A stretch of 43,041 nt of DNA from a virus (IMGVR_UViG_2744054964_000002:1-43041); one strand, 5' to 3'; counted from the first letter of the stretch, positions 4,822 to 8,544 are shown. Numbers and translations: made by a program. The notes: generated by a model from the letters alone, not told the origin.

Positions 4822-5793
4822 TCAGTAGTGGATTTTCGCGCAGGGGATCAGGTCATCCTTCAGAGCGGTGAGCACTTCGATAGCCTGTTCGCGGGTTAAG
4901 CTTGTGTGGCTGGTGAGCGCGTTAACGATGTTGGTGCCGACCGTCTTGCGGTGCTTCACGTCGGCTTCACGTTTTGCCTGCTCATCGGCGATGCGCTTCT
5001 CTTCGGCCAGACGTTTCTCTTCTGCCTGTTTTGCCTTGAGGCGCTCAGCTTCCACTGCCGCGGCTTTTTCGCGTTCTGCCCGGGCTTCTGCTTCCTGCTT
5101 CTCGCGAGCTGCACGCTGTTCCGCTTCGACGCGCTGGCGTTCAGCCAGCTCTGCACGTGCTTTCTCTTCAGCTTCACGGCGCGCTGCGGCTTCAATCTCT
5201 GCTTTGTGCATCGCTTCGGCATCGCGGCGGGCTTGTTCTGCCGCTTCCTGCTTCAGTCGTTCGTCACGTTCACGCTGAGCCTGTTCTGCCTGGCGGCGCT
5301 GCTCTTCGCGGTCACGGTCAAAATCCTTGTTCATCAGTAGAGCCATTTCGTGGTCCGCTTCGAACTTGGCAGCCAGCTCCTGATCAAACCTGATGTTCAT
5401 CTCCAGCGCTTCGGCGTGCATCGCGTTCATGGCTTCTTCAGCCTTAATGCGTTCCTGCTCGGCTTCCCATTCGGTGAGTGGGCGGCGGGTCGCATCGCGC
5501 AGCTCGTCGCAGGCATCAACGAATCGCTTAATTTCGGCCTCAGCCGGACGCACAGCCTCTTTCAGGCGCTTCAGGTACTCACGGCCCGGCTTTTCGATTG
5601 CCGTCTTGCTGCGGGACACCTGCGCTGCCAGAGAGGCAACACGGTCACGGCCTTTCTTCGTGGACAGGTCCGGCACTTCGTTTACAGCCTGGCGGATTTG
5701 CTCAAGGTACGCGTCAAGGCCGCCCGCTACGTAAAGCACTGGGGCCTGTTCCGGCTTGATTTCGATGACAGTTAAGTCCGTTACTTCGCTCAT
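4822..5793 (-). CDS. Coiled-coil protein with extreme E/A/R/K-rich low-complexity central region
   Basis: 323-aa ORF; central ~150 residues are near-repetitive (EAERLKAKQAEEKRLAEEKRIADEQAKREAD...); the many antisense ORFs in the track here are by-products of this bias. Confidence 0.6.
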   Translation of the reverse strand: MSEVTDLTVIEIKPEQAPVLYVAGGLDAYLEQIRQAVNEVPDLSTKKGRDRVASLAAQVSRSKTAIEKPGREYLKRLKEAVRPAEAEIKRFVDACDELRDATRRPLTEWEAEQERIKAEEAMNAMHAEALEMNIRFDQELAAKFEADHEMALLMNKDFDRDREEQRRQAEQAQRERDERLKQEAAEQARRDAEAMHKAEIEAAARREAEEKARAELAERQRVEAEQRAAREKQEAEARAEREKAAAVEAERLKAKQAEEKRLAEEKRIADEQAKREADVKHRKTVGTNIVNALTSHTSLTREQAIEVLTALKDDLIPCAKIHY

Positions 5794-5863
5794 GGTTTCT
5801 CCTGAAATTTGGATGTGCAGAACTCGCCCGCGTAATGCCAGGCCGATCGGTTGAATAGGGTGG

Positions 5864-6061
5864 TTACTGCTGCGCGATGGATTTCGCCGGGAACTCGCCG
5901 TTGCGGATGATGCTTTCTACCGGCCAGCACTCAGCTGACACTTTCTGCTCTGTAGCTGCCAGGCTGCATTCCTGCTGGCTGTCGTAAACGCCGAGAATGA
6001 CATCCTGATAATCACCGTTGGTCATTGCCACGGTCAGGACGAGTGCGAATAAAGTTTCCAT
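5864..6061 (-). CDS. Small hypothetical protein (65 aa from the internal ATG)
   Basis: Track ORF 5864-6115 begins with GTG; an internal ATG at 6061 (METLFALVLTVAMTNGDY...) overlaps the stop of the upstream small ORF (TGATG), suggesting coupled translation. Hydrophobic N-terminus. Confidence 0.35.
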   Translation of the reverse strand: METLFALVLTVAMTNGDYQDVILGVYDSQQECSLAATEQKVSAECWPVESIIRNGEFPAKSIAQQ

Positions 6062-6189
6062 CAGTGAAGAGTCCTCCCGATGGCGACGGCGTAAAGGCGT
6101 TTTGCTTCTTCCCACGCCGGAGCATTGCGATGGAGCACCGCGAACGACGCGAGCCGTTGGGCCTCTCTGATCTGCTGCTGGTTTACCAT
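6061..6189 (-). CDS. Small hypothetical protein (42 aa), not in ORF track
   Basis: Hand-translated MVNQQQIREAQRLASFAVLHRNAPAWEEAKRLYAVAIGRTLH; preceded by AGGAAA RBS; stop overlaps the next start. Confidence 0.3.
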   Translation of the reverse strand: MVNQQQIREAQRLASFAVLHRNAPAWEEAKRLYAVAIGRTLH

Positions 6190-6324
6190 GATTTCCTCTT
6201 GGCCTTATCGCGGCGAACGGAACGGTTAATACAAGACTTCAACGCATTTATTCAGTGTTTCATTGGGCGGTGGATGGCCGCCGGTTGTCATAACTTGAGT
6301 CACTCGTAAATAACTCCAGGTATG

Positions 6325-6348
6325 AAAAAGGCCGCCTACCTGGCAGCC
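6325..6348 (-). terminator. Candidate rho-independent terminator (minus strand)
   Basis: Minus-strand RNA GGCUGCC-AGGUA-GGCGGCC (7-bp stem with one G-U pair) followed by UUUUUC; lies about 75 nt downstream of the 6427-6768 ORF. Confidence 0.4.
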
Positions 6349-6426
6349 TCAACTTGAATGAGTGCCGGGATGTTTAGCCACGCCCGGCGCGTGCTCTCCT
6401 GCTATTCCCCAACAGCAAGAAATCGC

Positions 6427-6768
6427 TTACTCTTTAATTTCCCCAGCAGTAGAAAGGATATATTCATGCAAACCATGCGGACCGTGTGCCCTGACTGCGG
6501 AAGTGAGATGTTCAACCAGCCCGATGATTTTGACTTTGAGACAAATTTCACCGGCGTCAGTTGTGCTGACTGTGGTCGAGAAATCACTAAGGACGATGTT
6601 GTCAATCAGGCCACGGACACGGTCAAAAAACAGATCGACGACATGCTCAGGAATTCCCTGAAAGGAACTGGCTGGAAGTTCAAGTAACTTTAAAAGCTCC
6701 CCGGTCTGAGTAAGTACCTCGCTGGCGTCTACGTTAAGCAGTAGTGGCGCCGTTTTTTTATCTGCCAT
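6427..6768 (-). CDS. Hypothetical protein (113 aa); competes with the antisense ORF 6466-6687
   Basis: ATG at 6766-6768 preceded by GAGGAG RBS (5-nt spacer); same orientation as the surrounding leftward operon; followed by the candidate terminator at 6325-6348. No recognisable domain. Confidence 0.4.
   Translation of the reverse strand: MADKKTAPLLLNVDASEVLTQTGELLKLLELPASSFQGIPEHVVDLFFDRVRGLIDNIVLSDFSTTVSTTDAGEICLKVKIIGLVEHLTSAVRAHGPHGLHEYILSTAGEIKE
6466..6687 (+). CDS. Hypothetical small zinc-ribbon protein (73 aa); antisense to 6427-6768
   Basis: Internal ATG at 6466 with AAGGA RBS; paired CxxCG motifs (CPDCG ... CADCG, 19 residues apart) typical of a zinc ribbon; third-position GC looks higher than in the opposing frame (hand count). 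Confidence 0.35.
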   Translation: MQTMRTVCPDCGSEMFNQPDDFDFETNFTGVSCADCGREITKDDVVNQATDTVKKQIDDMLRNSLKGTGWKFK

Positions 6769-7313
6769 ACACACTCCTCTTTTTGTTTACCGTCAGCCCC
6801 TCGCAAAGAGCTGCTGGTAAACTTCGCCACACTCTCGCAGTGGCCGCGCACATGCCCTTGAGACCTTGTCGCTCATCGCCGCTCATAACCGGTGCGCGTC
6901 TGGCGTTCGCGCTGCTTTACCGGAGCTTGTTTTGATATAAGAACCTTGACCCATCACTACACAGGCTCGCCATTCGGCGACTCAGGGCGGCATCATTACT
7001 GCTGCATTGCCTTTAGGCTGCGGTCTGTCCGCTTTAGTTCTTCATTGGAATCACTCCTCTAAGTTGAATCAGCGCCCCATCATCGGAGCGCTTCAAATTG
7101 AGTGACTTATCAGCTCATCGCAGCGTGGTCCTCTACACCTACCGTACGCATACGGACTCAGTGCTTACCTCGATCCCATCGGGTGCCATTTCTTTTTGCC
7201 AGGAGAGCTACGGCTTGCCTGTCACTCAGTCTGATTTGTTAAAGAAGCAGGCGACTTGCTGTCCGCCGCTGGCTAACTTCGCTCAGCTGTCGATGTTTCG
7301 TTTCGATGAGCTG

Positions 7314-7342
7314 ATTATTAACTAATGGTTATTTTCAGTCAA
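7314..7342 (-). promoter_or_regulatory. Candidate leftward sigma70 promoter (possible pL)
   Basis: On the minus strand TTGACT (7342-7337), 16-17-nt spacer, then TAATAA/AATAAT (7320-7314); embedded in an AT-rich TGGTTA repeat region. Hexamer match only. Confidence 0.3.
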
Positions 7343-7460
7343 TAACCATTGGTTAATTATTTTGCCGTTGGTTATTAAGGTTATGATTTATTGGTTAATT
7401 TAGTTCTGTTATGGATTTGTGCAGTACGTGCTATGCTGCAAAAAACATCAGGAGGTAGCT

Positions 7461-7667
7461 ATGGAACGAGATGAACGTGCAGATGAACGAATAGCCTTCA
7501 TGGCTGGAGAGGTTGGGTGCGTAGTGTTCGAGCTGGTTTATAACGGAATTGAAATCAATAAGGACAACATTGTGGGATTTCTGGAAGGGAAGCGCAAAGC
7601 CGTAGGAAACGTGATCCATAAGGGGATGCTACGGGATGCGGCTGAGATGGTGCGGAAGGGCAAATAA
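7461..7667 (+). CDS. Hypothetical protein (68 aa)
   Basis: ATG at 7461 preceded by AGGAGG RBS and an extended -10 like element (TGcTATGCT, 7429-7437); convergent with the cI-adjacent cassette. Confidence 0.4.
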   Translation: MERDERADERIAFMAGEVGCVVFELVYNGIEINKDNIVGFLEGKRKAVGNVIHKGMLRDAAEMVRKGK

Positions 7668-7686
7668 AAACCCGGCGCTGGCCGGG
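7662..7686 (-). terminator. Rho-independent terminator ending the cI-adjacent cassette
   Basis: Perfect 6-bp GC stem CCCGGC-GCUG-GCCGGG (7671-7686) followed on the minus strand by UUUUUAUUU, starting 8 nt after the stop of the 7695-8045 gene. Confidence 0.6.
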
Positions 7687-7694
7687 TGATAGCG

Positions 7695-8045
7695 CTATTT
7701 CAAAACAAGTCCGTTTAAAGCATCAAGAATTTTAGAAACATAATTACCGAATACATAAACACAAAAAGCAAACACAACTGATAGAATGGCAGAAGAAGCT
7801 TTAAGTGTTGTCTTCATGGATTTTACTCCATTTTCGATTTCACTCAGCCTTGAGTCGATGCTCTTAATGTCTGATTTAATCTCAGCAATATCTCGCTTAA
7901 TGTATTCTACATCGGATTCTAAGCGTGCAACTCTGTATTGCATGTCATCGCCTCCGCCATTACCGTTGCCATGCCTCAAAGTATGCACGTTGAATTCTTC
8001 GTTAGCAACTGGTTGGCTTCGTTTGAGATATGCTGAATTTGCCAT
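7695..8045 (-). CDS. Coiled-coil protein with C-terminal transmembrane helix (XhlA-like architecture); cassette gene B
   Basis: 116-aa ORF; Gly-rich N-terminus (HGNGNGGGDD), heptad-like coiled coil (RLESDVEYIKRDIAEIKSDIKSIDSRLSEIENGVKSMK), hydrophobic C-terminal segment (AILSVVFAFCVYVFGNYV). Start is 1 nt after the stop of gene A. AT-rich by eye. Confidence 0.6.
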   Translation of the reverse strand: MANSAYLKRSQPVANEEFNVHTLRHGNGNGGGDDMQYRVARLESDVEYIKRDIAEIKSDIKSIDSRLSEIENGVKSMKTTLKASSAILSVVFAFCVYVFGNYVSKILDALNGLVLK

Positions 8046-8046
8046 G

Positions 8047-8472
8047 TCAGACTTTCCATTCTTTTGATAAGTAGAAATAACACTCTGAATCGTGAACTAA
8101 TCTACTTTTATCTTTATCATCAATGACATGAAGTGACAGTGTTACCTTGTAAACACCCTCTTCTTTAACAAGGATGTTCATCAGAGACATATTTTCAATG
8201 CTTACTGACTCACTTCCAGAGGTCGTGCCAGCCACAATAGGGTCTGATTGCAATGACTGACCACTACCGAAATCAATTCTCTGGTCGCCAAAAAATAGGT
8301 CTACATCAACACGATAGTTAACTTTAGTTTTAATAATTAGCCCAAAGGAAACGTCAATGCTGATTTTCCCTGAGTGCTCATCTGGCTTTATCCATGGCTG
8401 TGGATAATTTAAGGAGCGCGATATTTTACCGGGAAATATCTGGGATACATATAAAAATGAAATCTTTTCCAT
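8047..8472 (-). CDS. Hypothetical protein (141 aa); cassette gene A
   Basis: ORF with GAGGA RBS 6 nt upstream of the ATG, 72 bp downstream of the cI stop; AT-rich codon usage by eye; no recognised domain. Confidence 0.6.
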   Translation of the reverse strand: MEKISFLYVSQIFPGKISRSLNYPQPWIKPDEHSGKISIDVSFGLIIKTKVNYRVDVDLFFGDQRIDFGSGQSLQSDPIVAGTTSGSESVSIENMSLMNILVKEEGVYKVTLSLHVIDDKDKSRLVHDSECYFYLSKEWKV

Positions 8473-8544
8473 CGCTTATCCTCGTTAGCAAGCTATTTGT
8501 TACCAGATCTTCCCATGATCACTAACCCATCAGCATCTTCGTCT

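Follow-up and report, generated by a model that had tools for sequence, protein, structure and literature searches.

In bacteria and phages, long antisense overlaps with two protein-coding frames are a rarity and a matter of dispute. The reported cases are mostly taxonomically restricted ORFs that lie in much larger "mother" genes, and they are supported mainly by expression data. Antisense overlapping genes in the E. coli O157:H7 (EHEC)/Pseudomonas aeruginosa literature include oloz0137, oloz4542, and oloz5029, three genes that by their authors' statement are not in phage-derived regions (PMC9927249). One reported EHEC case is in frame -1, as is the overlap described here, and an origin by overprinting has been proposed (PMC9927249). 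Such genes are also the subject of "Shadow ORFs illuminated" (PMC8850804), taken here as it is cited in PMC9927249. Shadow ORFs themselves are antisense reading frames, open and in register with a genuine gene, and their statistics were treated by Mir et al. in 2012 (PMC3454372, again as cited in PMC9927249). A shadow ORF has the same frame relation to its gene as the ORF that concerns us, but it is without a conserved start, a Shine-Dalgarno (SD) sequence, an extension past the gene, and upkeep across lineages, all four of which are found in the minus-strand ORF of the present locus. Like the oloz-type genes, this locus would involve a long, nontrivial antisense overlap of two protein-coding frames; it differs from the reported antisense genes in that its two ORFs are alike in size and the overlap is complete, the pair is mobile between prophage operons, and the evidence is comparative only.

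In excludons and type I toxin-antitoxin systems, convergent complementary transcripts interfere with one another, which makes expression mutually exclusive; type I systems consist of a noncoding antisense RNA and a small hydrophobic peptide toxin. The likeness of our pair to both would lie in its convergent, fully complementary transcripts. It departs from type I systems in that the minus-strand product has 113 aa and is not of a membrane type and in that the antisense partner is an ORF under selection. Lambda N and HK022 Nun, the latter similar in size to the 113-aa product, are the first pL genes after nutL or putL, and the class is defined by an arginine-rich RNA-binding motif at the N terminus. 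The minus-strand ORF occupies the same map position, but the arginine-rich motif is absent from its N terminus and, unlike N and Nun, it sits in tail or antirepressor regions in other phages. The put biology of the HK022 type is covered elsewhere (PMC9378689). Antitermination of that type is marked by a put RNA with two stems immediately downstream of pL.

Each of the two ORFs has a described counterpart. The plus-strand ORF is a member of NF047912, a family of enterobacterial prophage proteins of 60 to 80 aa named after ECs_2282 of prophage Sp12 in E. coli O157:H7 Sakai. ECs_2282 itself lies antisense to the pL-side operon of Sp12, as its homolog does here; the family description is silent on an antisense partner, whereas both here and in Sakai an in-register ORF covers the gene. 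The minus-strand ORF is orthologous to HK639_45 of Escherichia phage HK639 and lies in the same place, after a putL-like leader and a putative pL. The HK639 record is without the zinc-ribbon gene, the frame with the stronger evolutionary signal.

Locus and existing annotation

The window, meaning the whole stretch of 43,041 nucleotides of viral DNA that was analyzed (IMGVR_UViG_2744054964_000002:1-43041), is a lambdoid prophage, and a near-identical prophage is present in E. coli 88COLEC. The same ~220 bases of it carry two ORFs, one per strand: a zinc-ribbon ORF on the plus strand and a 113-aa ORF on the minus strand (Table 1). An initial annotation had described this arrangement, and its structural particulars proved accurate. 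Both ORFs are present with the extents it gave; the minus ORF has a strong GAGGAG ribosome-binding site, runs in the operon direction, and is followed by a terminator; and the plus ORF encodes paired CxxCG knuckles (CPDCG...CADCG), has an AAGGA ribosome-binding site, and has the higher third-position GC (0.62, versus 0.46 for the minus ORF). The minus-strand neighbors of the locus include gam, bet, exo, and DUF1482, and the minus ORF is therefore taken to head the leftward early (pL) operon as its first cistron.

The gap in existing annotation is systematic, in that GenBank gives one strand for HK639 and RefSeq gives the other, with a start too far upstream. RefSeq has the plus strand only, as a 109-aa "ECs_2282 family putative zinc-binding protein" at 6358-6687. 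The HK639 record (NC_016158), whose DNA is 96.5% identical to the window over 6363-6821, has the minus strand only, as the hypothetical protein HK639_45. There, HK639_45 adjoins a "putL-like antiterminator RNA" and a putative pL, and its annotated start is a GTG inside the SD; an ORF finder extends the ORF of the window in the same way, to a GTG at 6774, inside the SD. The putL-like feature maps to 6765-6890 of the window, of which only 6769-6821 is homologous, the 5' part being different. An Rfam search of 5500-8500 gave sub-threshold chance matches only, none of them for the putL-like leader. Full-text searches of the literature on ECs_2282 and HK639 returned nothing relevant to expression of either strand.

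Table 1. Features of the locus, in window coordinates
Feature	Position	Strand	Details
Intrinsic terminator downstream of minus ORF	6323..6350	-	9-bp hairpin 6328-6350, then U5; centroid -16.1 kcal/mol
Two interleaved conserved stems	6364..6393	.	A: GCCGGG 6364-6369/CCCGGC 6383-6388; B: CCACG 6378-6382/CGTG 6390-6393
Conserved region upstream of plus gene, with direct repeat	6406..6449	+	TCCCCAACAG 6406-6415, TCCCCAGCAG 6440-6449
Minus ORF, 113 aa, HK639_45 ortholog	6427..6768	-	ATG 6768, stop 6427-6429; covers the whole zinc-ribbon gene
SD of plus gene (AAGGA)	6454..6458	+	7 nt before ATG, read from sequence
Zinc-ribbon gene, 73 aa, ECs_2282 family	6466..6687	+	two CxxCG knuckles, then C-terminal helix
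N-terminal 27 codons of minus ORF, outside plus gene	6688..6768	-	motif h-x-h-x-h-D-[TAI]-[ST]-x-h-x-x-[KQ]-h-x-x-L
Intrinsic terminator of plus gene	6723..6759	+	hairpin 6723-6752, then U7; -12.4 kcal/mol
Leader, shared with 3' part of HK639 putL-like antiterminator RNA	6769..6821	-	96.5% identity to HK639 up to 6821
SD of minus ORF (GAGGAG)	6774..6779	-	5 nt before ATG, read from sequence

What the shared register allows by chance

The two ORFs share their triplets, the difference between 6466 and 6427 being divisible by 3, and plus positions 1, 2, and 3 are thus minus positions 3, 2, and 1. In this register, the "shadow ORF" frame, antisense stops arise solely from TTA, CTA, and TCA codons of the plus ORF. 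Given the plus protein and the codon usage of the window, the antisense frame would be free of stops over the 73 shared codons with a probability of ~0.43. The overlap in one genome is therefore unremarkable and proves nothing; its significance can come only from relatives.

The plus strand: an ECs_2282-family zinc ribbon

The plus ORF reads MQTMRTVCPDCG...CADCGREITKDDV..., with the knuckles CPDCG and CADCG, and its product matches NCBIfam NF047912 over model positions 4 to 60 of 60 with 83.3 bits (cutoff, 37; E = 8e-24). From 168 homologous loci we obtained 87 distinct sequences, and the plus ORF is intact in all 87. Substitution counts use 76 distinct sub-regions, with one locus (L007) excluded, and were made on a codon alignment by parsimony on a neighbor-joining tree. 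Among these 76 relatives, the shared codons have 104, 55, and 280 substitutions at plus positions 1, 2, and 3 (Wilcoxon test for position 3 over position 1, 1.5e-8), and the plus-frame dN/dS in the overlap is ~0.19, a value that shows purifying selection on this frame. Codon-position conservation, one of the checks that the initial annotation had named, follows the plus positions inside the overlap, and by this comparison it is the plus frame that dominates there. The four Cys codons have no changes at positions 1 and 2 and four to eight changes each at position 3; selection on the minus frame cannot explain codons that are frozen at the first two plus positions and free at the third. In an initial alignment of 20 sequences, C33 and C36 do not vary at all, and C8 and C11 hardly vary. 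On these comparisons the plus ORF is certainly a gene.

The RefSeq start at 6358 was rejected, being unconserved and separated from 6466 by in-frame stops in most relatives. Among the 76 relatives, the interval 6430-6465 shows no codon periodicity, and the real plus start is therefore, with those upstream stops, placed at 6466.

An exhaustive profile search divides the family into 100 clusters at 50% identity, which are chiefly small standalone proteins. Translational coupling to codirectional genes is seen in two remote relatives, L201 and L202. In L202 the in-register antisense frame is broken, with many antisense stops; in L201 it is open across the plus ORF but is without an extension or a start beyond. 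AlphaFold2 models the plus protein of the window with low confidence (pLDDT, 57.4), and a PDB profile search gives generic zinc fingers only. The PADLOC model PDC-M14A is matched by 12 of 15 plus-family members (best E = 1.6e-8), and by the window protein in part, residues 6 to 72 aligning with positions 20 to 90 of a model of 152 positions (E = 6e-6, 24.6 bits). PDC-M14 is a multigene defense candidate, itself putative, and the likeness here is to the gene A model alone. This resemblance hints at a role for the zinc ribbon as a prophage accessory or in defense.

Signals around the plus gene

The SD of the plus gene is kept as AAGGA or GAGGA across 15 diverged representatives. Its terminator falls within minus codons 3 to 16; its stem arms, GGCGTC and GGCGCC, hardly vary, even at minus third positions, and a homologous hairpin of 10 bp is found in the lineage L075 (z = -2.8). 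With an SD and a terminator of its own, the plus gene therefore looks like a separate transcription unit. A consensus scan found no sigma-70-like promoter for it; the same scan also missed the minus terminator that folding shows.

Upstream of the gene, the direct repeat is 80 to 90% conserved in 15 diverged representatives, and both of its copies change together to TCCACAG in L003 and L006; the region 6406-6449 is possibly an operator or a 5'UTR element. Beyond it, the two interleaved stems fold on the plus strand with -19.6 kcal/mol (z = -2.6). Relatives carry compensatory variants both of stem A (GCCTG/CAGGC, GCTGGG/CCCAGC, GCCCGG/CCGGGC, and ACCGGG/CCCGGT) and of stem B (CCGCG/CGCG, CCATG/CATGG, CCACC/GGTGG, and CCCAC/GTGGG). 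This covariation was judged by inspection of the variants listed, the variant types having been mis-registered in the MAFFT alignment.

The minus ORF among close relatives

The minus ORF is open in 76 of 77 close relatives, and its ATG is kept in 74 of 76. In the 27 N-terminal codons outside the plus gene, substitutions number 89, 63, and 142 at minus positions 1, 2, and 3 (76 relatives, parsimony), a periodicity with Wilcoxon P values of 1e-4 and 1.4e-3 and binomial P values of 1e-5 to 6e-4, and dN/dS is 0.55 to 0.63. The periodic signal peaks in codons 17 to 27, outside the stem of the plus terminator. The near-invariant AP and DA residues of this N terminus coincide with the terminator arms GGCGCC and GGCGTC, where the third positions are held fixed as well, so that some of the conservation of the N terminus reflects a constraint on the nucleic acid.

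Inside the overlap, the minus frame of the window's own family gives no sign of a constraint separate from that on the plus frame: its dN/dS is ~1.5 (76 relatives), its last 12 codons evolve freely, with no constraint, and the 4-fold sites of the plus gene are near Poisson. In another subfamily (P0082, 19 distinct sequences), adjacent noncoding DNA has 1.04 changes per site, the minus N-terminal extension has 0.56 (12/6/24 at minus positions 1/2/3), and the overlap has 0.29 (22/6/26), where two codons that change repeatedly weigh heavily in the 22 changes at position 1. As far as these counts go, independent constraint on the minus frame inside the overlap is only suggestive.

The minus N terminus is acidic and hydrophobic (MADKKTAPLLLNVDASE...; MADKKTAPLLLNVDASEVLTQTGELL), and the protein is without a long uncharged hydrophobic or membrane-spanning stretch. 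The terminator downstream of the ORF is not conserved among relatives. Searches of Pfam, NCBIfam, and PADLOC, in which seven diverged members were tried, gave no family match, PHROGs gave a weak match to phrog_29546 only, and PDB profiles gave no meaningful match, only sub-threshold ones to de novo designed TIM barrels. An HMM search with both translations, likewise proposed at the outset, therefore has a one-sided result: the plus protein passes NF047912, and the minus protein matches no family. AlphaFold2 does not discriminate between the two, the pLDDT of the minus model (55.5) being low like that of the plus model.

The pair across diverged prophages

Distant plus homologs (31 to 46% identity) come from Klebsiella, Enterobacter, Yersinia, Limnobaculum, and Rahnella, and their surroundings differ widely: a tail operon, another pL operon, regions with baseplate and antirepressor genes, and, in one case, a site that does not look like phage. 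In each of them, the zinc-ribbon ORF runs opposite to its neighbors, and an in-register antisense ORF of 88 to 104 aa spans it; in L170, the start of the antisense ORF overlaps the stop of the upstream gene by 4 nt.

A systematic survey of 346 loci, 309 of them usable, yielded 74 distinct plus proteins, which group into 22 clusters at 78% identity. Of these clusters, 20 carry an in-register antisense ORF over the full span of the plus gene, as does Sakai ECs_2282, for a total of 21 lineages. The partner of ECs_2282 in prophage Sp12 is unannotated and carries the same N-terminal motif (N terminus, MALYIDISAIAGQV). Full antisense partners are lacking in L007, from Leclercia, and in the remote L201/L202 type. 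The initial annotation had suggested that homologs of one protein with the other frame interrupted would tell against the pair. Plus homologs with a broken antisense frame were indeed found (L007 and L202), but the minus ORF is not thereby dismissed.

Across the 20 clusters, the antisense ATG lies 24 to 30 codons past the plus stop (86 codons in one cluster), and a purine-rich, SD-like run is found no more than 20 nt upstream of it in every case, mostly at ~5 to 12 nt. In all 20, the long ORFs on either side lie on the minus strand, and at least three kinds of operon are represented. The minus ORF ranges from 88 to 155 aa across lineages, and in L233 the protein has gained an extra N-terminal segment of 58 residues. 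The N-terminal motif is common to all 21 ORF-bearing lineages. Its Asp codon is GAC in 76 of 76 close relatives and GAT in at least L172, which indicates that the motif is not frozen at the DNA level. An HMM of the motif built from the window's subfamily (27 aa) ranks the right ORFs at the top in other subfamilies, though weakly (E = 0.014 and 0.33). In the extension, deep-lineage identity at minus positions 1, 2, and 3 is.42,.55, and.33, with an amino acid identity of 25%.

The codons that would place stops in the antisense frame, TTA, CTA, and TCA, are absent from the body of the plus gene in all ORF-bearing lineages; they are present only in its first 7 codons, which is where the minus ORF ends. 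With the codon usage of the window, the product of the probabilities of an open frame over the 21 lineages is 10^-10.3. We also compared plus third positions between lineages, conditioning on the plus amino acids and assuming saturated synonymous sites. Their identity in the overlap is 1.28 times the expected value in 161 pairs in which both partners have the ORF, versus 1.03 times in 65 pairs in which one partner lacks it (Mann-Whitney P = 2e-12, the pairs not being independent). The excess is real but modest, because the same statistic is 1.14 in the singly coding extension, which serves as a control. By these comparisons, conservation of the pair extends to at least 21 diverged prophage lineages and down to ~30 to 40% protein identity.

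Discussion

The initial annotation had allowed that both ORFs might be expressed, and it is the reading in which both are real that is better supported, the minus start, SD, extension, and open frame being kept in 20 of 22 lineages and in Sakai. We consider it probable, from these comparisons, that both ORFs are protein coding and that they make up an antisense gene pair, fully nested and sharing one codon register. The minus ORF is probably a gene, translated and selected, because its initiation site is conserved, its N terminus evolves in the manner of coding sequence, and its frame has been kept open against the odds. It would be the first cistron of the pL operon, just after the putL-like leader. 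Its residues 1 to 27, outside the overlap, would form a conserved strand-helix motif, and the remainder would be read from the antisense strand of the zinc ribbon. The plus gene points against the leftward pL operon and looks like a separate transcription unit. Of the two, the zinc-ribbon gene is likely the older, and the minus gene would have been born by overprinting on it, because remote relatives have the zinc ribbon without an antisense partner.

A more skeptical account, which we regard as unlikely, is that only the zinc-ribbon protein is functional and that translation of the minus ORF, or simply its open frame, is maintained for a reason independent of its sequence. In a polarity variant of this account, ribosomes on the antisense cassette would keep the operon mRNA coupled and shielded from Rho or from antisense pairing, and selection would keep the start site and the open frame, not the protein. 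Such selection would fit a minus dN/dS of ~1.5 in the overlap, a C terminus that is unconstrained and an ORF that varies in length, in every case spans the antisense gene almost exactly, and never runs against the flanking operon, as well as a protein without a detectable fold or family. It is harder to reconcile with the N-terminal extension, which is conserved in amino acids (dN/dS, ~0.6) and carries its motif in different codons in lineages below 40% identity, with the 58 N-terminal residues gained by the L233 protein, and with plus third positions that are over-alike only in ORF-bearing lineages. Moreover, the operon here would, by homology, be put-antiterminated, and Rho polarity should therefore matter little.

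It is improbable that the minus ORF is no more than a shadow ORF, one that goes untranslated, owes its existence to the codon composition of the zinc ribbon, and is called by gene finders only for its greater length. This would be the classic in-register antisense frame, with a single-genome probability of being open of ~0.43, and it would explain both why substitutions in the overlap follow the plus frame only and why RefSeq has no minus ORF. A shadow ORF, however, would have its frame broken and its start and SD lost in diverged relatives, which is not the behavior of an ORF whose ATG survives in 74 of 76 relatives and whose SD is found in 20 of 20 lineages. Nor would a by-product be expected to have coding periodicity in a 24- to 30-codon extension past the plus gene, to be open in all lineages at a joint probability of ~1e-10, to end exactly where antisense-stop codons appear in the plus gene, and to be always co-oriented with its neighbors. 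The reverse case, implied by the GenBank annotation of HK639, in which the zinc-ribbon ORF would be a shadow of the minus ORF (HK639_45), the sole real gene, draws on the greater length, operon direction, strong SD, and downstream terminator of the minus ORF and was rejected on the codon-position data as scarcely credible: minus position 1 would vary 2.7 times more than position 3 (280 versus 104), four Ala/Thr codons would have the invariant third base that opposite-strand Cys codons require, and the plus protein scores above a curated HMM cutoff, with remote relatives that lie in ordinary operons.

If both strands do code, as we think probable, the two mRNAs would be fully complementary and convergently transcribed, and expression of either gene would therefore probably exclude that of the other. 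In the lysogen, where pL is repressed, the zinc-ribbon gene would be active; on induction of the antiterminated pL transcript, or of a late operon in other phages, transcription would sweep through the locus, the minus protein would be made, and the plus gene would be silenced. We tentatively raise the possibility, itself rather doubtful, that the pair is a mobile switch cassette that provides a zinc ribbon in the lysogen and an overprinted antisense protein of ~100 aa under lytic transcription, with convergent transcription and duplex RNA enforcing the either/or choice. More speculatively, the two complementary-strand proteins may act on each other or on the same target.

Most earlier claims of antisense genes have concerned young, lineage-restricted ORFs and have been made from expression data. 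The pair described here, if true, would extend over at least 21 lineages and several kinds of operon, with selection signals on two strands and with ORF-less relatives as a natural control. It would thus offer a clean system in which to study overprinting and the constraints of dual coding, and it may reveal a novel means by which prophages link a gene of lysogeny with one of the lytic phase.

Start of the zinc-ribbon protein and the region 5' of its gene

In the RefSeq entry from 88COLEC, an E. coli strain with a near-identical prophage, the zinc-ribbon protein is started at 6358 and is 109 aa long (WP_431195031). This start is probably wrong because the resulting N-terminal extension is interrupted by in-frame stops in most relatives and because no codon periodicity was seen in it among the relatives compared.

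Two features lie just upstream of the plus-strand zinc-ribbon gene (see the table). A direct repeat is found immediately 5' of its Shine-Dalgarno sequence, and in two homologous loci (L003 and L006) both copies are altered jointly to TCCACAG; this co-change suggests a candidate protein-binding site or 5' untranslated region element. Farther upstream are two interleaved stems, and in each of them several double changes seen among relatives are compensatory. With just 1 nt between the 3' arms, a true pseudoknot seems unlikely on steric grounds; the stems may instead be alternative hairpins.

Features of the zinc-ribbon region and its surroundings (window coordinates, except the last row)
Feature	Position	Strand	Detail
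ORF with a charged central stretch	4822-5793	-	323 aa
Fluoride riboswitch model match	5864-5926	+	19.4 bits (gathering score, 34)
RefSeq N-terminal extension	6358-6465	+	
Interleaved stems	6364-6393		GCCGGG/CCCGGC; CCACG/CGTG(G)
Direct repeat	6406-6415; 6440-6449		TCCCCAACAG; TCCCCAGCAG; spacing, 34 nt
5' half of the minus-strand ORF leader	6822-6900	-	
Perfect inverted repeat	7314-7357		ATTAACTAATGGTTATT...AATAACCATTGGTTAAT; 17 bp
Antisense ORF, Sakai Sp12	6819-7175 of locus L347	+	MALYIDISAIAGQV...

Leader, control region, and neighboring features

The 5' half of the leader ahead of the minus-strand ORF is unlike the putL-like RNA of Escherichia phage HK639. Among relatives, the same conserved 54 nt is joined to at least five unrelated leader types, and the put-like region thus has the look of a product of mosaic exchange. 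A perfect inverted repeat is overlapped by a promoter-like site on the minus strand (TTGACT-17-AATAAT; 10/12 matches). It is a candidate operator-promoter or bidirectional terminator lying between the immunity region and the left early operon.

Elsewhere, the middle of the 323-aa ORF, a protein labeled only as hypothetical in RefSeq, is a long stretch rich in Glu, Ala, Arg, Lys, and Gln; it is highly charged and resembles a coiled coil. The subthreshold riboswitch match, antisense to the DUF1482 gene, is most likely due to chance.

Antisense partner in other lineages

In prophage Sp12 of E. coli O157:H7 Sakai, ECs_2282, the namesake of the NCBIfam family, is also faced by an unannotated, in-register antisense ORF, which carries the N-terminal motif of the minus-strand ORF. 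The corresponding ORF in a lineage of IMG/VR contigs (L233 and L235) encodes 155 aa, with ~58 additional N-terminal residues preceding the shared motif; as judged from these sequences, the minus-strand protein can therefore gain further sequence.

Database entries for the zinc-ribbon protein include some, from Klebsiella (P0019, P0020, and P0021), in which the C terminus is frameshifted (…SSGMPSRERAGSSSNPSSSST). Either the sequencing was in error or the frameshifts are genuine, in which case the antisense frame would be shifted too.
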